Source: Eledone cirrhosa (lineage: Eukaryota). Taken from it: a stretch of 64,000 bases of DNA. The position numbers and the translations under genes were made by a program. Shown piece by piece: positions 1-43,250 of the stretch. Within the stretch, counting starts at the first letter, position 1. Each line of letters opens with the position of its first letter. The stretch lies in NCBI GenBank assembly GCA_964016885.1, contig OZ024743.1:233368001-233432000 (forward strand), given 5' to 3'. The notes beneath the pieces were generated by a model. The model ran no database searches and was not told the origin of the DNA. It saw nothing but the letters and a program-made list of their open reading frames with translations.

Positions 1-2089
1 CAGTACAATGAGGATGAATCATTAGCCAGAAATAGAAGCAACTACACCCCATCAAAAGGTAGAAATAAAATCCTGGACGAATTCTGTGAACACATCACAA
101 ACTTCCCTTACCAACACTTGCACAGACAAAAACACAAGCCAAACCTCAACAAGAAAGAATGGGAAGAATTAAATAGATTAAAAACCGACAGAACCATTAC
201 AATTAAAGATGCCGATAAAGGGAGTACAGTAGTCCTAATGGAGACAGAATTCTATATCAACTTAGCGCTCTCCACTTTGGAAAACGAAACATACTACGAA
301 AAGGCTGAATACTACAATCAACAGAAAATTATGAGAAACCTAAACACTCTGATCAACCAATACAAAGAAGGATTCACTAACAAGGAATTCAGCTTCATCA
401 CAGACTTCACAAGTAAATCCAGCCTTCTCTACGGTATCCCTAAAGTACATAAAAGCGAATTAATAAGTAAGGCATGCAAGGAAGCCACAGACATAGTCAT
501 CAATGTCCCCTCACCCAATGATCTCAAATTAAGACCTATAATAGCAGGCCCCGCTTGCGAAACCCACCGCCTTAGCAACTTCATTGATACCCTTCTCAAG
601 CCTTTTCTCAAACACATCAAAAGCTATATAAGGGACGACCTAGATATGCTCAATCACCTCCCTAATATGCCCCTTTCTGAACAAACACTATTAGTGACGT
701 TCGATGTAGTCAACCTATACTCCAACATCCCCCACAACCTAGGAATAGAAGCTATCCAATTCTGGCTGGATAATTACCACAATGAACTCCCACAACGCAT
801 CAAAAAAGAATTCGTGATAGAGGGACTCAAATTTATCTTGGAGAACAATTACTTCGTTTTCAATAACAAATCCTACAGGCAGAAATCTGGGACCGCTATG
901 GGAACGAAAACAGCCCCCACTTATGCCAACCTAGTCATGGGATACCTGGAAATCACCCTCTACACTAAAGTACTAAACAAATTTGGAAACACTCTCCACT
1001 TACACATAGAAAGGAACTGGAAGCGATATCTAGATGACTGCTTCATCCTTTGGCACGAAAACATCGAGAAACTTAAAGAATTTCACACCCTTATAAATGG
1101 GCTCAACGCGAATATTAACTTTACGATGGAATACAGCCATCAACAACTCCCCTTCCTCGACATCCTCGTTAATATTCATAACAAAAAAATAGAAACGGAC
1201 ATATACTACAAGCCCACAGACTCCAAGCAATATCTTCCTTTCAACTCTTGCCACCCTAGACACGTTAAAATTAATATTCCCTACAACTTAGCCAAGAGAA
1301 TCTGTACTATAGTCTCCAATAAAAACACCTGTTACTTACGGCTACAAGAACTAAAGGACACACTCATAGGCAGGCACTACCCTGCATCACTAATTGATAA
1401 TGGAATTCAACGTGCCCTAAAACTCAGTACCCAGGACCTTAGACACCCTAAAGTAAATCAACCGAAACTAAAAGCTCTTCCATACATCTCCACACACAAC
1501 CCCCTCAACAATGAGGCTTTTGACACCATCCTCCAGAACATCACTGTGTTAAAAAAGGACCATAGAATGAACCAAATCCTACGAACACACGATATCATAA
1601 AGAGCAAAAGACAATCTAAGTCAATGAAAAACATCTTAACACATGCTAAAGTACTGCCAACCACAACAACGAAACCCTCAGTAAAAAAAATGCGATAGAC
1701 CCAACTGTGGCATACGCATCAACCTAATAGAGGGTTCGGAATTCTATTTCAAAGAAGGACAACGTTTTATAGTAAAACACAATTTCACATGCGCATCAGA
1801 AAATCTAATATATGTATTAACTTGCTCAGGTTGTTGAGAACAATACATAGGCCAGACCAAATATAGCCTCCGCCAACGCATGACTGTCCATAGATCCCAA
1901 ATTAAAATACGGGAATACAGGAAAATACCACTGAGTGAACACATTGATACCTGTGCCGCCCAAAATCATCCCAACTTCAGAATCTTTCCCCTCTACAAAT
2001 TTAAAGATAATGCCACCCACACCCAGCGCATCAGCAAGGAATCTCACTTTATTAACAAATACGGACCCCGTCTAAATACTTCTCCCTAA
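1..2089 (+). pseudogene. PLE RT + GIY-YIG endonuclease ORF, disrupted
   Basis: Frame open from base 1 to 1698; frameshift in the A-run at ~1683-1690; continues as CDRPNCG...NLIYVLTCSGC*EQYIGQTKYSLRQRMTVH...KESHFINKY..LN to stop at 2089, with one in-frame TGA. Confidence 0.88.
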
Positions 2090-12747: not shown

Positions 12748-13075
<328 letters not shown>

Positions 13076-13382
13076 ATATATGTATATATATGTTAGTAGA
13101 TATGAATTCTTTATTATTATCTCCAAATTATTTGTCGAGCAATATTGGCCATGACTGCTGCTACTGTTGTAGGCAGGCCGCTGTCTTATTAGAAAACCAC
13201 TTTCCACTGATTGACCTCGATGTCACGTGTTCGATTCTTTTTGAATTTGCCACAGACGTAGAGGCAGTGATTTTCTCAATGGCTTGGAATTCAGTCCACG
13301 CTTCGCTATTTCCTATCCACTGAATTATTTTTTAATAAGTTTCCACTGTCCTCGCTTTGCCTGGAAACTTACATGAGAATAG

Positions 13383-13465
13383 ACTTTCCTGACGACGGAA
13401 TGCTTCTCTATATTATTCTTCGGAAAATATATTTACTCCATTCCAGAAACTAATTAGTTGGAAGT
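13383..13465 (+). ncRNA. Type I hammerhead motif with extended stem II
   Basis: actttc-CTGACGA-cggaatg..cattcca-GAAA-ctaattag-TT-ggaagt; 6 bp stem I, palindromic ACTAATTAGT stem III. Confidence 0.75.
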
Positions 13466-13519
13466 GATATTTTAGTAAGTAAGTTAATTTTATAATTTTC
13501 TTATTTTACGTCTCTTATA

Positions 13520-15240
13520 TATATATATATATATATATACATAAATACAAAAGAAATCTATATTAGTAGCATGACACAGTCCGTTCATCATATGAATCGA
13601 TCCGCTCTGTTATTGTGTCGTTTCTCCCTTTCCTTCTTGTTGTCCTGCTTCCTTTGGTTTTCAATATTGACCCTTACATCGTGGATTAGCCTCCGCCATA
13701 TTGGTCTGTCATCGACATAATGCCTCCAACAGTGAAGAATGTTACCTTCTTTTCAAAATATCTTTGATCGTGTCCTTATACCTCAAGAGAGGGCGTCCTA
13801 CATGTCGAACACCATCCACAAGCTCACCAAAAAGAAGTTTCGTTATAGGTCTACAATCATCCATGCAGATGACATGGCCAACCCATCTGAGTCTATTCCT
13901 TATGAGGATAGTTTCAATATCAGGAATCTTTGCACGTTTCAGTACCTTATTGTTTGTGTCAAAGTGGTCCCATTTGATGTTGAGAATGAACCTTAGGTGT
14001 CGTTGCTGAACTGTTCTTAACTGTCTTATGTAGGAACGATGGAGAGTCCACGTCTCACTTCCATACAGCAAGAGAGGGGTTACACATTGGTTATAAACTT
14101 TGGCTATAAAGGTTAGTCTCAGATGTCAGTTGCCTGGATTCAAAGACTCTCACTCTTAGTTTACCTACAGCACAAGAGGCAACTTGAATACGTGCACTAA
14201 GTTCATCTAGTTTACAGTCTTTGCTGACATAGCTGTCAAGATACTTAAAACATTCCATTCTGGCAAGTTTTTGCCCATCAATGAAAAAATCAACTTGCTC
14301 TCCGACACTCATTATTTCGGTCTTCTTAATGTTGATACGAAAGCCGTTTTCAATGAAACTGTGTTATATGCAGATAACAGCTGCTGTAGAGCAATGGGAT
14401 CATTGCAGAAAACAGCGATGTCATCAGCATATTAGGCCTCCCTTATGAAATCAAGTATCTTTGTCTTGGACTTGAGGAGACGAAGATAAAAAATATCCCC
14501 ATCATATTTAAAGCGTACTTTGATGCAGTGTGAGGAGCTGACTTCTATAAAGGCTATAAAGAACTGTACAGCAGCGTAGAACCCAAACAGTGTAGGGCAA
14601 GTTTTCAGACTTGCTTCACCCCACTATTTTAGTTGATGGGGTTCGATAATTCGCCATCTATAATAAACCTAGCATTCATATTTGACTATAGAGTCCTGAT
14701 GATATTAACAAATTTTGTTGGACAGCCAAACTTTCTCAGGATTTCGAAGAGTAGTTCTCGATTGTTTCATTCAAAAGCCTTGGTGAAGTCTATAAAGGCG
14801 ATGTGTAAATTACACTGCTGTTCTCTGCATTTCTCCATAATTTGACTTAAGGTGAAGATGCCATCTATAGTGTTTCTATTCCTCCTATATCCAGATTGTA
14901 ACTTAGGGTACAATTTTTCAGCAATCCGCTGTGGTCTCTGGAGTATGATGTCAGCAAAGAGTTTCCCAACCACATTAATCAATGCCACGGTAGTTTTCAC
15001 AAAGACTACGATCACCTTTCTTAAAAGGGATAGAAATGTTAGCATCAATAAAGTCAGATGGTAAGCTTTCTGAGATGCAGAACCGATTAAAAATAGAAAG
15101 CAGAGATGTTGTGAAGGCATTGCCACCATTAACTAAAACCTCTGGGATTAATTCATCAGGACCTGGACTCTTCCTGAGTTTAGTGTTTTTGAGTGCTGTC
15201 TAAAGTTCTTTCATGGTAATAGGGTTGTTAAATTCGTCAA
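13520..15240 (-). mobile_element. RTE-clade LINE, 5' truncated, degenerate RT
   Basis: ORF fragments QSGYRRNRNTIDGIFTLSQIMEKCREQQCNLHIAFIDFTKAF, YADDIA, FKYLDS, LYGSETWT, RLRWVGHV, LFGELVDGVRHVGRPLLRYKD; (TA)n tail. Confidence 0.88.
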
Positions 15241-20105: not shown

Positions 20106-20236
<131 letters not shown>

Positions 20237-20809
20237 GGGAGGAGGTTATAGTTCACTTGAAGCATTGTGTAATGAGGTATAAACGTTAGAATATGTGTAA
20301 TAAGGCCAAGACAATGCAGATATGGACATAGAAAAAGAATGCAATAGTGAGAGATATTGGTGAGAATTAGTCTTTCACCTTGAATTTATTTAAATGTCCT
20401 TAATTTTCGAGATAATATCTCTTCTTCGGAGGGAAGTAAAAGTCTCAGACCAGCGTCTAAATTTCCAATGAAGCCATGCTGACCGGAAATAGTATAGAGT
20501 TCTAACTTTAATATCAAAGAATTAAAATTAGGTGGGTAAAGAGTAGTCTCCCTTTAAGAGGGGTTTGTTTATGTTTTTGTTGTGTTATGTAAATTTTATA
20601 TGCGTGCCTGTATATGTGTGTGGGAGAAAGCATGAAGGTGTAGGTATGTGTGTGTGTGTGAGTGTGGGAAGATAGGTCTAATCGTAAAAGTGGGGGGTAG
20701 GTGTTATCTGGTGTTAGAACTGGTTTTGTGTGTGTATGTGTGAGAGAGAATAAGTGGGGGTGTGTGCGTGCGTGTGTGTGGGGTGTGTAAAGTGGGGCTA
20801 GAGGCCCTA

Positions 20810-23392
20810 TCAGGTTATAAATTGGGTGTTGAGCTCTAGTCTATTATTGATTGGTGGATGTGTTCTATCTATAATGAGTGCTTCCTTGATTCTAAGATTA
20901 CCGAGGTTTCTTTCTTTAGTTTCTATCCTAACTGTTATGTTTTTATCAGTGTTTTTGCATTTAACTAGGTGTTTCTTAAATGAGGAAGCGTTAGTATTGA
21001 GGTGTTCTTTTATTCTTATGTGGAGTGGTCTGGTGGTGCTACCTACGTAGAAGTTGTTGCATTTGTCACACTCTAGTCTGTAAACTACGTAAGCCTGGTG
21101 GCATAGGTCTGTGTCGTTGATGGGGCAGTTGGCTAGTCTGCAGCAGTTGTCATGTCTGGTGGAGTGTCTCTTAGCTAGCCGTCCACGCAAAGAAGGACCC
21201 GAATGGGCCAGTTGAATATCCAGACCTTCTCGTCTGATGGCTCTGCGGATGGCTGTTGTTGTTTCTTCACTGAAGTGTGGGAGCTTCAGGAAGCAAGTGT
21301 TAGTGCCTCGGGTGTGGTGTCCTCTGTTCTTTCTGGCACGGTTTGTGGTGGATGTCGTGTATCCGTTCAGTTTGAGTACTTCCAGGAAATGTGTGGTGTG
21401 TGTGTCTCGGTCTCTGGCGTCGGTGCATTTGTTCTTGATACGTGCCAGTTCGTTCTTTATGTATCCGAACTTGGCACCGAGTGGGAGGGCCGATCTGAAA
21501 TGTACGAACAGGTCCCTGCTGGCGGATTTTTTATAGAAGCAGGTGTGGATGTTGCCTTCCTCTGTTACCCTGAGTTGGAAGTCCAGCAGGGATAGGGATC
21601 CGCGGTCATCGGGGTGTTCAATGCTGAACTTTATACTGGCGTCCATGCTGGAGAATGTTGTGTATATTTTCTCTGCCTCTTCACGGGATGATGTAAGGAT
21701 GAGTATGTCATCTACATATCGGGTGAAGAAGGCATGGGAATGGCAGGTGTTGAGGGCTCGGCATTCTAGCTGGTTCATGTAAGTGATGGCCAGCAGGCCA
21801 GAGAGGCTGGATCCCATGGGTAATCCTGTTGTCTGTCTGTATGTGTGGTGGTGGAAGGTGAAGTACGTGTTGTCTACCGTGAAGGACAAAAGTTGGTGTA
21901 TGTCCGTCGGGTGGAGGCCGTAGCAGTGGATGTTCTCTGCGACCACGCAGTCCGTCAATAAATCGACAGCTGGGTGAGCGGGGACTGTAGTGTAGAGGGA
22001 GACAACGTCGAGGCTAAAAGCGTATTTATTAAGTTTAAGTTGTTCTGGCTGGAGTTGGTGTAATCTACGTATAACTTCGTCGGAGCTACTGACATGTCCG
22101 GGGAAGGTGGAGAGTAGAGGCTTGAGGACCTGGGAGAGAAGCCAGGAAATTTTGTATAGGGGTCCTTCTATGCTAGAGACGATGGGTCTTATATGCGTCT
22201 TAGTGCTATTCTTGTGGGTCTTGATGAGGTGGTAGAAAGTGGGCAGTCTGCTATTTCTAGTGGTGTAGTTGAGTTTAATTTTATTCGGGAGTTGTCTTCT
22301 CCTACAGATATCGAACCAAATGGAGTTGGTCTGTTTTTCGATTTGGGCTGCGGTCATGTCCGGGATCACTGTGTACAGTTCACTGTCGCTTAGGTGTTCG
22401 AAGGCTAGGTTATTGTATGTGGCTTGAGAGATGACGCAGAACTCTTTACCTTTGTCGGATGGTAAGTAAATAAGTTCCTTATTCCGTAGGTTCTTCAGGG
22501 CGAGTTGTTGTGTCCTGGAGAGGTTAGGGGCCATCTTCTTCTGTTTCCGTAAGATGTTAAATACGGAATGTTTTAGTCTCGAGAGTTTATCTTCCAGCTC
22601 GCGGTTGGCGGGCGGTGGATAGAGTGGGCGATCTAGTTGGTATATCGGGAATCTGGGTGTGGTGGATTCCGTGGTGTTGTTGTCGAGAGTCGATATCCAT
22701 TTCAGTTGGTAGGCAGCTCGACAGAAATTCGTTTCTATGTCGAGCCATAGTCTGTCGTCCAGTCTCTGTTTCAATATGAATTTGGGACCCAGGCTGAGGA
22801 GGTCTAATTCCTCTCGGGAGAGGGATCCTGTCAAGTCTGTGACGAGGTGTTTTGCGTCAGGTGTGTTGTTGGTCGGGGTGCCGCTAGGTTCGGTGTTGGT
22901 AACGTATTGTTCGCCTCTGTTGGTGTTTGGCGTTGGGATGTTGTTAAGACAGTTGGCCGTCCTGAGTTTGAGAAATTTTTGTGTTAGGCGTTTTTTCTCG
23001 TAGTCTCGGCGGTGGTGGTATGACCTGTCTATAGTGGCGGAGATGACCTTGGACAGAGGTTCTGGGGTTTCAGCGAGTTGTGGTACAAGGCTGGAGATAG
23101 TCCGTATGTGATGTTGTAGCGTGCGGTGTAGGTGTTGTATGAGTTTTCTTAGGCAGAATTTTTGTATGTAACTGAGAGATCGTTTGAGGCCTGGTGAATT
23201 GAAGAATGTTGGTAGGTGTAAATTTTTGATGGTTTTGGGAATGATGTTGTTGTTCAGGCATCGTTTTAGGAAATTTATTTGGCAGCCGGCTTTGGCGCGC
23301 TTTTCAGATAGCTGGAAGAGTTTCTTTACAGTTGTGAACTGGGCCTGGCTCAGGCGTAATGAAAGGAGGAGGTTATAGTTCACTTGAAGCAT
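20810..23392 (-). CDS. PLE polyprotein, RT + GIY-YIG endonuclease, 860 aa, intact
   Basis: SDKG, FYHLIKTHK, IRPIVS, SLDVVSLYT, GLPMGS, RYVDD, VVYRLECDKCNNFYVGSTTRPLHIRIKEH, KEALII..HPPIN. Confidence 0.95.
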   Translation of the reverse strand: MLQVNYNLLLSLRLSQAQFTTVKKLFQLSEKRAKAGCQINFLKRCLNNNIIPKTIKNLHLPTFFNSPGLKRSLSYIQKFCLRKLIQHLHRTLQHHIRTISSLVPQLAETPEPLSKVISATIDRSYHHRRDYEKKRLTQKFLKLRTANCLNNIPTPNTNRGEQYVTNTEPSGTPTNNTPDAKHLVTDLTGSLSREELDLLSLGPKFILKQRLDDRLWLDIETNFCRAAYQLKWISTLDNNTTESTTPRFPIYQLDRPLYPPPANRELEDKLSRLKHSVFNILRKQKKMAPNLSRTQQLALKNLRNKELIYLPSDKGKEFCVISQATYNNLAFEHLSDSELYTVIPDMTAAQIEKQTNSIWFDICRRRQLPNKIKLNYTTRNSRLPTFYHLIKTHKNSTKTHIRPIVSSIEGPLYKISWLLSQVLKPLLSTFPGHVSSSDEVIRRLHQLQPEQLKLNKYAFSLDVVSLYTTVPAHPAVDLLTDCVVAENIHCYGLHPTDIHQLLSFTVDNTYFTFHHHTYRQTTGLPMGSSLSGLLAITYMNQLECRALNTCHSHAFFTRYVDDILILTSSREEAEKIYTTFSSMDASIKFSIEHPDDRGSLSLLDFQLRVTEEGNIHTCFYKKSASRDLFVHFRSALPLGAKFGYIKNELARIKNKCTDARDRDTHTTHFLEVLKLNGYTTSTTNRARKNRGHHTRGTNTCFLKLPHFSEETTTAIRRAIRREGLDIQLAHSGPSLRGRLAKRHSTRHDNCCRLANCPINDTDLCHQAYVVYRLECDKCNNFYVGSTTRPLHIRIKEHLNTNASSFKKHLVKCKNTDKNITVRIETKERNLGNLRIKEALIIDRTHPPINNRLELNTQFIT

Positions 23393-24236
23393 TGTGTAAT
23401 GAGGTATAAACGTTAGAATATGTGTAATAAGGCCAAGACAATGCAGATATGGACATAGAAAAAGAATGCAATAGTGAGAGATATTGGTGAGAATTAGTCT
23501 TTCACCTTGAATTTATTTAAATGTCCTTAATTTTCGAGATAATATCTCTTCTTCGGAGGGAAGTAAAAGTCTCAGACCAGCGTCTAAATTTCCAATGAAG
23601 CCATGCTGACCGGAAATAGTATAGAGTTCTAACTTTAATATCAAAGAATTAAAATTAGGTGGGTAAAGAGTAGTCTCCCTTTAAGAGGGGTTTGTTTATG
23701 TTTTTGTTGTGTTATGTAAATTTTATATGCGTGCCTGTATATGTGTGTGGGAGAAAGCATGAAGGTGTAGGTATGTGTGTGTGTGTGAGTGTGGGAAGAT
23801 AGGTCTAATCGTAAAAGTGGGGGGTAGGTGTTATCTGGTGTTAGAACTGGTTTTGTGTGTGTATGTGTGAGAGAGAATAAGTGGGGGTGTGTGCGTGCGT
23901 GTGTGTGGGGTGTGTAAAGTGGGGCTAGAGGCCCTATCAGGTTATAAATTGGGTGTTGAGCTCTAGTCTATTATTGATTGGTGGATGTGTTCTATCTATA
24001 ATGAGTGCTTCCTTGATTCTAAGATTACCGAGGTTTCTTTCTTTAGTTTCTATCCTAACTGTTATGTTTTTATCAGTGTTTTTGCATTTAACTAGGTGTT
24101 TCTTAAATGAGGAAGCGTTAGTATTGAGGTGTTCTTTTATTCTTATGTGGAGTGGTCTGGTGGTGCTACCTACGTAGAAGTTGTTGCATTTGTCACACTC
24201 TAGTCTGTAAACTACGTAAGCCTGGTGGCATAGGTC

Positions 24237-25434
24237 TACATAAAGAACGAACTGGCACGTATCAAGAACAAATGCACCGACGCCAGAGACCGAGACACAC
24301 ACACCACACATTTCCTGGAAGTACTCAAACTGAACGGATACACGACATCCACCACAAACCGTGCCAGAAAGAACAGAGGACACCACACCCGAGGCACTAA
24401 CACTTGCTTCCTGAAGCTCCCACACTTCAGTGAAGAAACAACAACAGCCATCCGCAGAGCCATCAGACGAGAAGGTCTGGATATTCAACTGGCCCATTCG
24501 GGTCCTTCTTTGCGTGGACGGCTAGCTAAGAGACACTCCACCAGACATGACAACTGCTGCAGACTAGCCAACTGCCCCATCAACGACACAGACCTATGCC
24601 ACCAGGCTTACGTAGTTTACAGACTAGAGTGTGACAAATGCAACAACTTCTACGTAGGTAGCACCACCAGACCACTCCACATAAGAATAAAAGAACACCT
24701 CAATACTAACGCTTCCTCATTTAAGAAACACCTAGTTAAATGCAAAAACACTGATAAAAACATAACAGTTAGGATAGAAACTAAAGAAAGAAACCTCGGT
24801 AATCTTAGAATCAAGGAAGCACTCATTATAGATAGAACACATCCACCAATCAATAATAGACTAGAGCTCAACACCCAATTTATAACCTGATAGGGCCTCT
24901 AGCCCCACTTTACACACCCCACACACACGCACGCACACACCCCCACTTATTCTCTCTCACACATACACACACAAAACCAGTTCTAACACCAGATAACACC
25001 TACCCCCCACTTTTACGATTAGACCTATCTTCCCACACTCACACACACACACATACCTACACCTTCATGCTTTCTCCCACACACATATACAGGCACGCAT
25101 ATAAAATTTACATAACACAACAAAAACATAAACAAACCCCTCTTAAAGGGAGACTACTCTTTACCCACCTAATTTTAATTCTTTGATATTAAAGTTAGAA
25201 CTCTATACTATTTCCGGTCAGCATGGCTTCATTGGAAATTTAGACGCTGGTCTGAGACTTTTACTTCCCTCCGAAGAAGAGATATTATCTCGAAAATTAA
25301 GGACATTTAAATAAATTCAAGGTGAAAGACTAATTCTCACCAATATCTCTCACTATTGCATTCTTTTTCTATGTCCATATCTGCATTGTCTTGGCCTTAT
25401 TACACATATTCTAACGTTTATACCTCATTACACA
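24237..25434 (+). repeat. Upstream pseudo-LTR (ORF 3' end + 544 nt UTR)
   Basis: Direct repeat of 27364-28549; minus-strand counterpart at 23393-24237. Confidence 0.92.
25268..25302 (+). ncRNA. Minimal type I hammerhead in pLTR (U4C core variant)
   Basis: cct-CCGAAGA-a-gagat/att/atctc-GAAA-at-TA-agg with AATT palindrome; identical copies at 28395-28429 (+), 23525-23559 (-), 20398-20432 (-). Confidence 0.68.
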
Positions 25435-28017
25435 ATGCTTCAAGTGAACTATAACCTCCTCCTTTCATTACGCCTGAGCCAGGCCCAGTTCACAACTGTA
25501 AAGAAACTCTTCCAGCTATCTGAAAAGCGCGCCAAAGCCGGCTGCCAAATAAATTTCCTAAAACGATGCCTGAACAACAACATCATTCCCAAAACCATCA
25601 AAAATTTACACCTACCAACATGCTTCAATTCACCAGGCCTCAAACGATCTCTCAGTTACATACAAAAATTCTGCCTAAGAAAACTCATACAACACCTACA
25701 CCGCACGCTACAACATCACATACGGACTATCTCCAGCCTTGTACCACAACTCGCTGAAACCCCAGAACCTCTGTCCAAGGTCATCTCCGCCACTATAGAC
25801 AGGTCATACCACCACCGCCGAGACTACGAGAAAAAACGCCTAACACAAAAATTTCTCAAACTCAGGACGGCCAACTGTCTTAACAACATCCCAACGCCAA
25901 ACACCAACAGAGGCGAACAATACGTTACCAACACCGAAGCTAGCGGCACCCCGACCAACAACACACCTGACGCAAAACACCTCGTCACAGACTTGACAGG
26001 ATCCCTCTCCCGAGAGGAATTAGACCTCCTCAGCCTGGGTCCCAAATTCATATTGAAACAGAGACTGGACGACAGACTATGGCTCGACATAGAAACGAAT
26101 TTCTGTCGAGCTGCCTACCAACTGAAATGGATATCGACTCTCGACAACAACACCACGGAATCCACCACACCCAGATTCCCGATATACCAACTAGATCGCC
26201 CACTCTATCCACCGCCCGCCAACCGCGAGCTGGAAGATAAACTCTCGAGACTAAAACATTCCGTATTTAACATCTTACGGAAACAGAAGAAGACGGCCCC
26301 TAACCTCTCCAGGACACAACAACTCGCCCTGAAGAACCTACGGAATAAGGAACTTATTTACTTACCATCCGACAAAGGTAAAGAGTTCTGCGTCATCTCT
26401 CAAGCCACATACAATAACCTAGCCTTCGAACACCTAAGCGACAGTGAACTGTACACAGTGATCCCGGACATGACCGCAGCCCAAATCGAAAAACAGACCA
26501 ACTCCATTTGGTTCGATATCTGTAGGAGAAGACAACTCCCGAATAAAATTAAACTCAACTACACCACTAGAAATAGCAGACTGCCCACTTTCTACCACCT
26601 CATCAAGACCCACAAGAATAGCACTAAGACGCATATAAGACCCATCGTCTCTAGCATAGAAGGACCCCTATACAAAATTTCCTGGCTTCTCTCCCAGGTC
26701 CTCAAGCCTCTACTCTCCACCTTCCCCGGACATGTCAGTAGCTCCGACGAAGTTATACGTAGATTACACCAACTCCAGCCAGAACAACTTAAACTTAATA
26801 AATACGCTTTTAGCCTCGACGTTGTCTCCCTCTACACTACAGTCCCCGCTCACCCAGCTGTCGATTTATTGACGGACTGCGTGGTCGCAGAGAACATCCA
26901 CTGCTACGGCCTCCACCCGACGGACATACACCAACTTTTGTCCTTCACGGTAGACAACACGTACTTCACCTTCCACCACCACACATACAGACAGACAACA
27001 GGATTACCCATGGGATCCAGCCTCTCTGGCCTGCTGGCCATCACTTACATGAACCAGCTAGAATGCCGAGCCCTCAACACCTGCCATTCCCATGCCTTCT
27101 TCACCCGATATGTAGATGACATACTCATCCTTACATCATCCCGTGAAGAGGCAGAGAAAATATACACAACATTCTCCAGCATGGACGCCAGTATAAAGTT
27201 CAGCATTGAACACCCCGATGACCGCGGATCCCTATCCCTGCTGGACTTCCAACTCAGGGTAACAGAGGAAGGCAACATCCACACCTGCTTCTATAAAAAA
27301 TCCGCCAGCAGGGACCTGTTCGTACATTTCAGATCGGCCCTCCCACTCGGTGCCAAGTTCGGATACATAAAGAACGAACTGGCACGTATCAAGAACAAAT
27401 GCACCGACGCCAGAGACCGAGACACACACACCACACATTTCCTGGAAGTACTCAAACTGAACGGATACACGACATCCACCACAAACCGTGCCAGAAAGAA
27501 CAGAGGACACCACACCCGAGGCACTAACACTTGCTTCCTGAAGCTCCCACACTTCAGTGAAGAAACAACAACAGCCATCCGCAGAGCCATCAGACGAGAA
27601 GGTCTGGATATTCAACTGGCCCATTCGGGTCCTTCTTTGCGTGGACGGCTAGCTAAGAGACACTCCACCAGACATGACAACTGCTGCAGACTAGCCAACT
27701 GCCCCATCAACGACACAGACCTATGCCACCAGGCTTACGTAGTTTACAGACTAGAGTGTGACAAATGCAACAACTTCTACGTAGGTAGCACCACCAGACC
27801 ACTCCACATAAGAATAAAAGAACACCTCAATACTAACGCTTCCTCATTTAAGAAACACCTAGTTAAATGCAAAAACACTGATAAAAACATAACAGTTAGG
27901 ATAGAAACTAAAGAAAGAAACCTCGGTAATCTTAGAATCAAGGAAGCACTCATTATAGATAGAACACATCCACCAATCAATAATAGACTAGAGCTCAACA
28001 CCCAATTTATAACCTGA
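25435..28017 (+). CDS. PLE polyprotein, RT + GIY-YIG endonuclease, 860 aa, intact
   Basis: Same protein as the minus copy except three residues (PTF/PTC, TEP/TEA, KKM/KKT). Confidence 0.95.
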   Translation: MLQVNYNLLLSLRLSQAQFTTVKKLFQLSEKRAKAGCQINFLKRCLNNNIIPKTIKNLHLPTCFNSPGLKRSLSYIQKFCLRKLIQHLHRTLQHHIRTISSLVPQLAETPEPLSKVISATIDRSYHHRRDYEKKRLTQKFLKLRTANCLNNIPTPNTNRGEQYVTNTEASGTPTNNTPDAKHLVTDLTGSLSREELDLLSLGPKFILKQRLDDRLWLDIETNFCRAAYQLKWISTLDNNTTESTTPRFPIYQLDRPLYPPPANRELEDKLSRLKHSVFNILRKQKKTAPNLSRTQQLALKNLRNKELIYLPSDKGKEFCVISQATYNNLAFEHLSDSELYTVIPDMTAAQIEKQTNSIWFDICRRRQLPNKIKLNYTTRNSRLPTFYHLIKTHKNSTKTHIRPIVSSIEGPLYKISWLLSQVLKPLLSTFPGHVSSSDEVIRRLHQLQPEQLKLNKYAFSLDVVSLYTTVPAHPAVDLLTDCVVAENIHCYGLHPTDIHQLLSFTVDNTYFTFHHHTYRQTTGLPMGSSLSGLLAITYMNQLECRALNTCHSHAFFTRYVDDILILTSSREEAEKIYTTFSSMDASIKFSIEHPDDRGSLSLLDFQLRVTEEGNIHTCFYKKSASRDLFVHFRSALPLGAKFGYIKNELARIKNKCTDARDRDTHTTHFLEVLKLNGYTTSTTNRARKNRGHHTRGTNTCFLKLPHFSEETTTAIRRAIRREGLDIQLAHSGPSLRGRLAKRHSTRHDNCCRLANCPINDTDLCHQAYVVYRLECDKCNNFYVGSTTRPLHIRIKEHLNTNASSFKKHLVKCKNTDKNITVRIETKERNLGNLRIKEALIIDRTHPPINNRLELNTQFIT

Positions 28018-28545
28018 TAGGGCCTCTAGCCCCACTTTACACACCCCACACACACGCACGCACACACCCCCACTTATTCTCTCTCACACATACACACACA
28101 AAACCAGTTCTAACACCAGATAACACCTACCCCCCACTTTTACGATTAGACCTATCTTCCCACACTCACACACACACACATACCTACACCTTCATGCTTT
28201 CTCCCACACACATATACAGGCACGCATATAAAATTTACATAACACAACAAAAACATAAACAAACCCCTCTTAAAGGGAGACTACTCTTTACCCACCTAAT
28301 TTTAATTCTTTGATATTAAAGTTAGAACTCTATACTATTTCCGGTCAGCATGGCTTCATTGGAAATTTAGACGCTGGTCTGAGACTTTTACTTCCCTCCG
28401 AAGAAGAGATATTATCTCGAAAATTAAGGACATTTAAATAAATTCAAGGTGAAAGACTAATTCTCACCAATATCTCTCACTATTGCATTCTTTTTCTATG
28501 TCCATATCTGCATTGTCTTGGCCTTATTACACATATTCTAACGTT

Positions 28546-28578
<33 letters not shown>

Positions 28579-41020: not shown

Positions 41021-42376
41021 TTACATTTTATATATATATTTTAAAGTTGAATTTAAACGATGTTTACAAGAACTAAATAAATTATTACGCAAATTAATGG
41101 AGTTCTTACATTTAAGTATAAAGAATATTTCCTCAACACATAAGTTGCAAAATTTGGATAAAGCTGTGTTTGTGTAGGCATGTGCTTTTGAAACAATATT
41201 ATAAAATAAAGAATAGTTTATATTCTTGGATTTTAAGTTCCATAATAAGTTGGATAGAGAAGTTGAAGATTTTTTACCAATATTCCTAAACGAAAATTTA
41301 TGGTTATTGAAACGAGATTTGAAGTCTGTAGAAGTAGAGCCAACATAGTTAACAGAGTTATCATTGGTTTTGACATTGCATTTATAAACCACATTTTTAA
41401 CTAAACAGTTATTTTTTAAAGGACAGTTAGATTTAATTCTACAATTACAATTATCAGAATTTAAATTATTATTATATTGGATATTGCTAGATGTATAAAT
41501 GCTAATCTGGTTAAGGTTTAGATTTCTATTATTGATTCTATTTATATTCTGTGCTAAATTCATAGTAGTAGAGTATGATAGTTTAATTGTATGTCTGTTA
41601 AAGATTGAATAATATCTATGTGCTCTGGGAAAACAATTATCAAGAGCTTTAAAAAATAGTTTAGCTAAAGGTGTTTTAATACTTAGTGAGAAAGGGGGAG
41701 CATATCAAATTATGTTTCTAGTTCTATTTCTTCTTTTAGTTTTAGAGTTTGTGCTAGAATTATTATAGTTATAATTATAATTATGGTTAATTGACGTATC
41801 ATTATTGTCGATGTATTTAATTTCATTACTATAGCCTGCTCGACTTAAAGCTTCGTTATAATATTCTGCCTTATCTTCAAATATATTTTTATTCGCTGAG
41901 ATTCTAGAAATACGTTGCTGTACGGAATTTACGATGGTGTTCTTAACAGATCTAGGGTGATTAGAGTTAAAGTTAACATAATTTAAATTTTCATTGATTT
42001 TATGAAATGGATAGTACATCCCAGTATTAAGGTTTAATGTTACATCTAAAAAGTTAATTATTTTATAATTATTCTCTATTTCTAACTTAATATTAAAGCT
42101 ATTAAAAAATTGTATTATTGATTTTCTTTTTCTATTGATTTCACAATCATTATTATTTTCAATTAACAACAACATATCATTACGATATAAACCACCGATC
42201 ATCTCCGGTAGTTTTCTATGTAATGCATTGTTAATAAAAAGCCCCACACGATCCGTTAATTGCGCCGAGTCCGATGACCCCATAGTAATATCGAAATTGT
42301 TATCCCTATCTGCTCTAGTCCAAAGATAGTTGTTAAATTTAATTAAGGTTTTACGTGCAGTTAAAATGATATGCAT
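41021..42376 (-). pseudogene. Naiad RT + GIY-YIG ORF remnant
   Basis: ORFs 41705-42376 and 41021-41563 are in frame, split by one TGA at a conserved Trp position; catalytic YRDD mutated to YRND. Confidence 0.85.
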
Positions 42377-42761: not shown

Positions 42762-42809
<48 letters not shown>

Positions 42810-42814
<5 letters not shown>

Positions 42815-43250
42815 ATATTAAATAAATGGAAACTATATTTATAAAACTATATTTATTCTAGTATATATATTTCAAGGGTAGCAACACTTTGGTACGCTTT
42901 CATCAGATAATATACAAAGTTTGTTTTATAAATTTTGACATAGCCAAGAAAAGATACCTTAACGGTTCAAGTTTTTCTTGACTATCCAAGAAAAACTTGA
43001 ACTATTAAGATATCTTTTCTTGGTTATGTCAAAATTTATAAAACAAACCTTGTATTTTATCTGATGAAAGCGTACCAAAGTTTTGGTACCCTTGAAATAT
43101 ATATAATAGAATAAATATAGGTTTATAAATATAGTTTCCATTTATTTAATATCATTGAATATTATACTCCAGAAAACTTGTCGAGGGCTCCAAATCAGTT
43201 ATAAACATTTATATTTGTTGAATTACCAACAAATTGAATATCCTTTTTGC
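42810..43250. mobile_element. Fold-back pair of Naiad-family pLTR ends
   Basis: Imperfect palindrome 42810-43157 centred near 42983; homologous to 39430-39615; (TA)n on both sides. Confidence 0.88.
43053..43113 (+). ncRNA. Type I hammerhead ribozyme, canonical core
   Basis: tattttat-CTGATGA-aagcgtaccaaa/gt/tttggtaccctt-GAAA-tatata-TA-atagaata; mirror copy at 42854-42914 (-). Confidence 0.85.

Follow-up and report, generated by a model that had tools for sequence, protein, structure and literature searches.

The regeneration of pseudo-LTRs in Penelope-like elements (PLEs) is said to have "no obvious mechanism" (PMC2377424), and the role of the PLE hammerhead ribozyme is an open question (PMC8557442). 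Both questions arise in a 64,000-nt stretch of Eledone cirrhosa DNA (contig OZ024743.1, positions 233,368,001 to 233,432,000), here called the window, in which a PLE carries hammerhead motifs one unit apart. A sequence-only reading had proposed that paired hammerheads excise a unit-length RNA with the whole ORF, and that insertions longer than one unit fit copying of a circle or of an uncleaved tandem transcript. Was the RNA that was copied into this locus a product of hammerhead cleavage?

Anatomy of a head-to-head insertion

The window contains a very young, intact element, present as a head-to-head pair (Table 1). The two redundant parts of the plus arm match without a mismatch over 1,186 nt at a period of 3127 nt, and those of the minus arm (20238-21110 and 23365-24237) match without a mismatch over 873 nt. 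The internal junctions of both arms are seamless, and a duplicated tail, which was looked for at the internal junction, was absent. A target-site duplication check placed both insertion ends in (TA)n. The arms differ from each other at 3 of 3,960 aligned positions (25622, 25939 and 26294), none of them in the redundant parts. Since the placement of all three in the single-copy part is within reach of chance (about 0.1-0.2, estimated by hand), these differences do not discriminate between template models.

Table 1. Features of the insertion, in window positions
Feature	Positions	Strand	Remarks
Plus arm	24237..28549	+	4313 nt (1.38 units); truncation point of 5' side 24237; stops 3' at short (ATG-13) site
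Minus arm	20238..24237	-	4000 nt (1.28 units); stops 3' at long (ATG+28) site
Head-to-head junction	24237..24237		single base (T) common to both arms
Upstream partial copy (pseudo-LTR)	24237..25422	+	identical to 27364-28549
3127-nt unit	25300..28426	+	predicted cut site to predicted cut site
Left (TA)n target flank	20210..20236		
Right (TA)n target flank	28550..28576		
Intact 860-aa ORF	25435..28017	+	RT (aa 396-591), Cys linker (C751, C756, C764), GIY-YIG endonuclease (aa 768-846)
Second intact 860-aa ORF	20810..23392	-	three amino-acid differences from plus-arm ORF
Minimal type I hammerhead	25259..25309	+	stem I 25268-25270/25300-25302; core 25271-25278, C at position 4; stem II 25279-25291; AATT 25295-25298; H17 at 25299, predicted cut after it
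Second plus-arm motif	28386..28436	+	H17 at 28426, predicted cut after it
Minus-arm upstream motif	23518..23568	-	H17 at 23528
Minus-arm downstream motif	20391..20441	-	H17 at 20401
Predicted 9-bp distal extension of stem I	25258..25328	+	25258-25266 with 25320-25328; in local MFE, absent from 3.2-kb fold
40-nt "tail" between two inferred reverse-transcription start sites	25423..25462	+	at minus arm's 3' end (20238-20277), missing from plus arm's
TCATTAC pair	25425..25471	+	25425-25431 and 25465-25471; no other copies in unit; one copy 2 nt beyond each 3' end; noticed after the fact

Such perfect redundancies, or the inversion, could have been produced by misassembly of a high-copy repeat; structures of this kind are hard for assemblers (PMC8557442), and no public contig spans the locus. 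However, the arms differ at three sites and in tail state, both tail states occur independently in public contigs, and the layout is a common Penelope form (PMC2377424). We therefore regard an assembly artefact as very improbable.

The plus-arm ORF matched PF00078 (E 4.8e-16) and then PF01541 (E 3.2e-5), both above the cut-off, so that a single ORF holds the RT ahead of the GIY-YIG domain. In an alignment of 30 sequences, the DKG motif (D313-K314-G315), the three linker cysteines and a CCHH motif with two Cys inside the GIY-YIG domain (C775, C778, H797 and H808) were invariant. The linker reads C-x4-C-x7-C, one Cys fewer than the CX2-5CxxC of the Nematis clade; by eye, the nearest row was PNL2_SM, which is printed under the Nematis rows. 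The invariant linker cysteines contradict the Penelope/Poseidon clade, for which no Cys linker is expected before the endonuclease. The DKG and CCHH motifs differ from the features of the Hydra clade (DKT, no CCHH, CxCX5C), and the endonuclease is C-terminal, whereas the Naiad/Chlamys clade has it at the N terminus.

The best partial matches among relatives reached 56% (P0001) and 61% (L060), and full-length matches 30-39% except for one distant match. A PDB search with the RT placed TERT chains at ranks 2-7 of 20 matches (E 6e-5 to 3e-4) behind a bacterial RT, in matches of only 60 residues. A search of a viral collection found no relative of the element. The locus is almost certainly a Penelope-like insertion; the family is new, and its kind, an endonuclease-positive PLE in (TA)n, is already known.

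The hammerhead motif

The four motifs of the window are identical, with the core CCGAAGA+A at 25271 and 28398 (plus strand) and at 23556 and 20429 (minus strand), a 5-bp stem II and the segment GAA-AATT-A. The coordinates and the mismatch-free redundancies bear out the proposal that each arm has two identical motifs 3127 nt apart, and the AATT palindrome and the predicted cut, with the ATG 135 nt further on, lie where they had been placed. The motifs have the C3-G8 pair, an extra base after A9, G10.1-C11.1, stems I and II, the palindrome and a U-H site, and the local MFE structure is the hammerhead fold. A descriptor scan gave four matches in the window and none in 20 Markov simulations of it. 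A covariance model built from 18 relatives alone ranked the four window copies top at 21.7 bits (rough E 0.0037), the next match scoring 17.2 bits. An Rfam search had no hammerhead family among its 61 matches at E<=1. Judged by its sequence, the motif is genuine and not a chance match.

Two features of the motif go beyond the earlier reading: its proximal stem I has just 3 bp, and core position 4 is C in 4/4 window copies. The relatives have U there in 19/19 motifs, 18 of which came from a scan allowing any base at position 4, L061 being the other. U4C is reported to reduce hammerhead activity in vitro considerably (PMC3088659). The change and the short stem may have inactivated the motif, which would then ride along in the pseudo-LTR as a relic, a reading of the ribozyme only and compatible with an uncut template. 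The constancy of U4 in the relatives favors this, as does a supplement file of PMC4209133 with 58 instances of CUGA against two of CCGA, both of the latter outside a core, although the authors' descriptor would bias that count. However, all of the other features are kept, the local MFE structure is still a hammerhead, and a diverged subfamily and the window sequence meet at 25260, immediately before the motif, which suggests constraint there. We consider a relic possible but doubtful; the window motif is best called a putative core variant of the PLE minimal hammerhead.

The earlier claim of a dimer-type motif holds at the level of the clade. A self-complementary tetramer was found in 18/18 relatives' motifs, though the scan set no such condition, and all four possible palindromes were represented. 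This retention indicates that dimer pairing is under selection, and a dimer-type ribozyme is supported, by sequence comparison, at clade level. Covariation among the relatives (95.4% paired, 0/500 shuffles) gave figures that are inflated because the scan itself demanded the stems and the 3-8 pair; we relied on the palindrome alone.

In folding energies, the active dimer fold cost +13.9 kcal/mol in a short construct and +19.1 kcal/mol in a 3.2-kb context. Since the penalty in 17 relatives' constructs was 7.2-24.0 kcal/mol, a cost of this size is ordinary for the clade and does not single out the window copy. When 3.2 kb were folded without constraint, the two copies of the motif paired together in an inactive form, to which we give no weight at such length. 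No motif lay within 800 nt in 16 of 31 relative rows with the ORF C terminus, some of these rows being short or degraded. One relative (L039) has a near-match to the motif, and the closest (L060) has an A-rich end without one.

Two fixed 3' ends and the RNA template

As the earlier reading had it, the copied blocks cross the predicted site at both ends: the plus arm continues 1063 nt beyond the first predicted cut and 123 nt beyond the second, the minus arm 710 and 163 nt. Their 3' ends, however, are not "variably permuted" as had been supposed. They lie at two fixed "tail" sites 40 nt apart, 25422 and 25462, and the 5' ends alone vary. Among 24 of 725 loose-end rows from public contigs, 3' ends into (TA)n recurred at 25422 in 2, 6 and 3 contigs (X1, X2 and X3), at 25462 in 11 and 19 contigs (X2 and X3) and at 25464 in 1 and 2. 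X1, X2 and X3 are one sample; the contigs, of unrecorded type and from four runs of one study, carry many fixed differences from the window and may come from a related organism. In X1, summed depth drops 5'-ward from 28,413 (27217-27365) to 1,935 (25578-25726). Relatives likewise have 3' ends at ATG-5 to -8 (L001, L061) or ATG+29 to +32 (L020, L047). From its position, TCATTAC is a candidate initiation signal.

Because the 3' ends lie 123 and 163 nt downstream of the predicted cut, and so of the 5' end of a linear excised monomer, such a monomer cannot have been the template of these arms. An excised unit-length RNA is thus excluded as template in its linear form; a circle, an uncut multi-unit RNA or strand transfer can each template these arms.

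A linear RNA uncut at the hammerhead is the probable template. The RT-GIY-YIG protein would cleave a (TA)n tract on both strands, and cDNA would be primed from each cut end. Within its RNA, the RT would begin at either of two fixed sites to the two sides of the ATG, -13 (plus arm) or +28 (minus arm). Each cDNA would cross the downstream hammerhead site, the entire ORF and the upstream hammerhead site and stop at a chance point, and the two cDNAs would be joined head to head. Since each cDNA ran through both hammerhead sites, the copied template would have been unbroken there, most likely a multi-unit transcript, or a terminally redundant one with homology-guided strand transfer. The hammerhead would be a genuine, slow, dimer-type ribozyme acting at another step, such as RNA end formation, translation or turnover, and would not be the source of the more-than-unit length.

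Published evidence leans against a required cleavage step. In Poseidon_Ac (PAc) of Anolis, initiation is internal at two tail-bounding sites, both target strands are extended, hammerhead mutants insert normally in vitro, so that cleavage is dispensable, and RNA-seq contains no reads starting or ending at the hammerhead cut; the insertion test used short RNAs in vitro (PMC11167929). Naiads are without canonical hammerheads, yet have the same partial tandems, inversions and tails (PMC8557442). For an uncut template there is also the fact that the family is intact and abundant with C4 in the window copies, together with the cost of the active dimer fold; against it are the selection on the palindrome and the seamless internal junctions of both arms, which a circle would predict. 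Should TCATTAC be the start signal, making a full-length +28 copy of the minus-arm type would take a template that continues into another ORF start. Such a continuation is missing from the 3' ends of both arms, so plain read-through of such a locus would be insufficient.

A circle would provide sequence downstream of both start sites. In this model, whose dimer cleavage and circle were already published by Cervera and de la Pena (2014, PMC4209133), two motifs would pair via AATT and cleave at 25299 and 28426, the 3127-nt RNA would be closed by a host ligase, and RT from the fixed sites would copy more than one round, regenerating the pseudo-LTR. The exact 3127-nt periodicity with seamless junctions in 2/2 arms and the palindrome selection agree with it. 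Circles are formed by the small retrozymes of metazoans, which RtcB ligates in vitro (PMC7229834), and U4C can still support viroid infectivity (PMC3088659). The PAc and Naiad results stand against a circle, as do the U4C change and the poor cleavage of minimal motifs even as dimers (PMC4209133), and our literature search found no report of a full-length Penelope circle. A circle is unlikely, and we give the same low probability to a variant in which the U4C dimer hammerhead, aided by the ORF protein, frees the coding RNA for circularization and RT starts just ahead of TCATTAC for more than one round.

A specific form of the uncut-template route has a single cut. The upstream hammerhead would set the RNA 5' end before the ATG, as R2 ribozymes do, perhaps helping cap-independent translation, and the uncut downstream copy would leave the RNA terminally redundant by 123-163 nt, which strand transfer could use. 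Read by eye, three relatives' insertions with a complete ORF begin between cut and ATG (L001/L002 at about +20, L013 at about +40, and L019, whose 100 nt of flank hold no motif), and ribozyme-aided initiation is reported in viruses (PMC13725137). However, none begins exactly at the cut, the three look like one family group, and read-through is seen in L049 (minus), in L015 and in both arms of the window. The 24 of 725 rows contained no loose end at 25300 and the pile-up table was empty, in contigs, which cannot reveal RNA ends. We consider a single cut quite unlikely.

Comparison with known systems

The locus answers neither opening question and narrows the options by excluding the linear monomer. 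Its anatomy will not surprise a specialist. It is a clean reagent: both ORFs are intact, a single insertion shows the two tail states, the predicted sites of cutting and starting are exact, the core is a natural variant, and there is a candidate for the start signal. If true, the circle reading would give an autonomous PLE a ribozyme-made circular intermediate and explain pseudo-LTR regeneration.

The element resembles endonuclease-positive PLEs with a C-terminal GIY-YIG domain (Craig et al. 2021, PMC8557442; Schostak et al. 2008, PMC2377424; Arkhipova et al. 2013, PMC3846280) in having one RT-EN ORF, a pseudo-LTR as a partial tandem, an adjoining inverted copy placed head to head, a 30-40 nt tail on one side, a (TA)n target and a hammerhead within the repeat. 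It differs in its Cys-poorer linker and in that both arms exceed one unit and keep their ORFs intact, an inverted copy being in most cases just a truncated fragment. With the minimal hammerheads of metazoan PLEs (Cervera and de la Pena 2014, PMC4209133) the motifs share type I topology, the extra base after A9, G10.1-C11.1, a short stem I, a palindromic 15.2-16.2 and copies about 3 kb apart around the ORF, but have C for U4; H17 is A in the window and U or C in the 18 relatives.

Like PAc (Frangieh et al. 2024, PMC11167929), the element has two putative internal start sites bounding a tail downstream of the hammerhead, an AT-rich target and, in the proposed route, extension of both strands. 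PAc, however, belongs to the Penelope/Poseidon clade and is cut 26 nt inside its ORF, whereas here the predicted cut precedes the ATG and the start sites flank it. Non-LTR retrozymes (Cervera and de la Pena 2020, PMC7229834) share tandem type I hammerheads one unit apart and are the precedent for ribozyme-made circles in animals; circles are shown there for retrozymes, and we found none reported for coding PLEs. Retrozymes are described there as 170-400 nt long and non-coding, with canonical hammerheads, in contrast to the 3127-nt unit with its 860-aa ORF.

A head-to-head Penelope-like insertion

The stretch described by the sequence-only reading is a single arm within a head-to-head structure of 8.3 kb that has (TA)n at both outer ends. 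We found that each arm contains an intact 860-aa ORF, and both ORFs have RT and C-terminal GIY-YIG domains above the Pfam cut-offs. Arm lengths are 3127+1186 nt (plus) and 3127+873 nt (minus); neither redundancy contains a mismatch, and the two arms differ from each other at 3 of 3960 positions. Of 7949 candidates, 136 proved related to the ORF protein at E<=1e-10, and the DKG, the CCHH residues, and the three-Cys linker were invariant in a 30-sequence alignment. By eye, the Cys linker is nearest to a row printed with Nematis in the PMC8557442 supplement. The insertion is an endonuclease-positive Penelope-like element (PLE) and represents a new, very young family of known kind.

Penelope-like and hammerhead-like features in the window
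Feature	Position	Strand	Remark
Minus arm	20238-24237	-	one base common with plus arm
Plus arm	24237-28549	+	one base common with minus arm
Hammerhead motif, plus arm	core at 25271, H17 (predicted cut-site base) at 25299	+	5-bp stem II, GAA-AATT-A
Broken PLE ORF	109-2083	+	further different family
Hammerhead-like core	13389	+	long stem II region; near inverted repeat 12851-13757
Broken remnant of another PLE family	41297-42289	-	linker resembles Hydra's CxCX5C by eye
Inverted repeat beside this remnant	42805-43162		hammerhead-like cores at 42906 (-) and 43061 (+), with a longer TA palindrome

Hammerhead motifs in the element and its relatives

The head-to-head structure contains four identical hammerhead motifs, and the ATG lies 135 nt downstream of the predicted cut; the positions and copy number originally assigned to the motifs were reproduced. 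In the segment 25240-25330, the hammerhead fold is the local minimum free energy (MFE) structure; its stem I has 3 bp and its distal helix 9 bp. An Rfam search did not detect the motif. Core position 4, which the earlier reading overlooked, is C in the window motifs; U occupies it in 19/19 relatives' motifs. According to PMC3088659, U4C considerably reduces activity in vitro, with viroid infection still possible. In a short construct the active dimer fold was 13.9 kcal/mol less stable than the MFE structure, which falls inside the range of 17 relatives (7.2-24.0 kcal/mol); in the 3.2-kb RNA the gap was 19.1 kcal/mol. The only AATAAA of the 3' repeat (25310 and 28437) is 11 nt past the predicted cut, and an out-of-frame upstream ATG lies at 25371 inside the 135-nt leader; either may be chance.

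A descriptor scan of 59 related metagenome loci returned 18 motifs, compared with 0 in 3.7 million simulated bases. Among the 31 rows having the ORF C-terminus, 15 carry the motif 71-464 nt past the stop; the remaining three lie on the other strand. Since the rows are mutually related and the stems were demanded by the scan, the informative part is the palindrome, which was present in 18/18 motifs (15 distinct) though not demanded: AGCT in 7, ACGT in 5, AATT in 3, and ATAT in 3. The 3-8 pair was C-G in 11 motifs, A-U in 6, and U-G in 1. In a model built from the 18 motifs, the window's four copies ranked first.

Three insertions in relatives have 5' ends that fall after the predicted cut but ahead of the ATG, which weakly suggests that an RNA 5' end may be set by the upstream hammerhead site. 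The related locus L001:2950-5948 has a full ORF, a 57-nt terminal repeat, an apparent 12-bp target duplication, and a 5' end ~20 nt past the predicted cut. On the minus strand of L049, upstream of the ORF start, a copy extends through the hammerhead region but has lost the motif core by internal deletion. Two related loci (L060 and L061) come from contigs catalogued as metagenome-assembled genomes of bacteria, and these contigs are probably animal DNA carried into bacterial bins.

Fixed 3' ends and candidate start signals

The plus arm has its 3' end at ATG-13 and the minus arm at ATG+28, a spacing of 40 nt. In public contigs from the same family or a close one (three runs being one sample), joins to (TA)n fall at 25422 and 25462/25464 among the 24 listed of 725 loose-end rows, and distant relatives have 3' ends at matching offsets. 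The recurring joins and the matching offsets indicate that 3' ends are fixed and 5' ends truncated, with no free permutation; the "variably permuted" insertions proposed earlier are thus not upheld. Summed contig depth, which is no copy number, drops ~15-fold toward the ORF 5' end. The 40-nt stretch is the "tail"; in the Anolis element, it is flanked by two internal RT start sites (PMC11167929). TCATTAC, noticed after the fact, occurs only twice per unit, each copy 2 nt past a 3' end, and a match of its length arises in 214/128,207 control pairs.

The pattern GCA/GTA-N2-10-GGYY is found at 25382-25395, in the stretch from the cut site to the ATG, and in 14/18 relatives versus a background of 8% per 70 nt, the pattern being derived from the same sequences; it is a possible protein-binding element. 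Within the ORF, immediately after the long start site, a 5-bp hairpin (25472-25484) has identical letters in two distant relatives (L010 and L021), which may only reflect LSQA codons. At 25260, contigs of a diverged subfamily continue into the window sequence (25242-25260 region; 9-14 contigs per run in the public runs X1-X3 and 2 in X4), and depth across 25280-25428 is well over that upstream. The hammerhead-and-tail module seems to be plentiful in short or diverged form.

The template and known precedents

Since the start sites are 123 and 163 nt downstream of the cut, a linear twice-cut RNA would yield only that much cDNA, and from this geometry we infer that such an RNA is ruled out as the template of both arms. 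Three routes remain, each giving seamless junctions: uncut multi-unit RNA, strand transfer across the terminal redundancy, and a circle. The linear uncut routes probably provided the template. A circle would also fit a palindrome under selection and would supply the needed sequence past the start site, which is absent from the arms' 3' ends, but we consider it unlikely, as hammerhead mutants of Poseidon_Ac of Anolis insert normally in vitro and RNA-seq ends are absent at its hammerhead site (PMC11167929). Furthermore, the same kinds of tandem, inversion, and tail arise in Naiads, a PLE clade with N-terminal EN that lacks canonical hammerheads (PMC8557442), minimal motifs cleave poorly (PMC4209133), and the window copy carries U4C.

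The dimer cleavage and circle predicted by the sequence-only reading are an already existing hypothesis. PMC4209133 describes minimal hammerheads that flank a PLE ORF as a pair spaced by ~3 kb and act as a dimer, and proposes that the RNA is ligated into circles from which copies longer than one unit are made; PMC6765202 restates these points. Our literature search, with most subscription papers outside its reach, found no report in which a full-length PLE circle was demonstrated. In D. virilis, the inverted partial-tandem form is the commonest Penelope structure (PMC2377424). Two modest additions to this picture, the U4C core and the pair of TCATTAC sites, give the element value as a test case.
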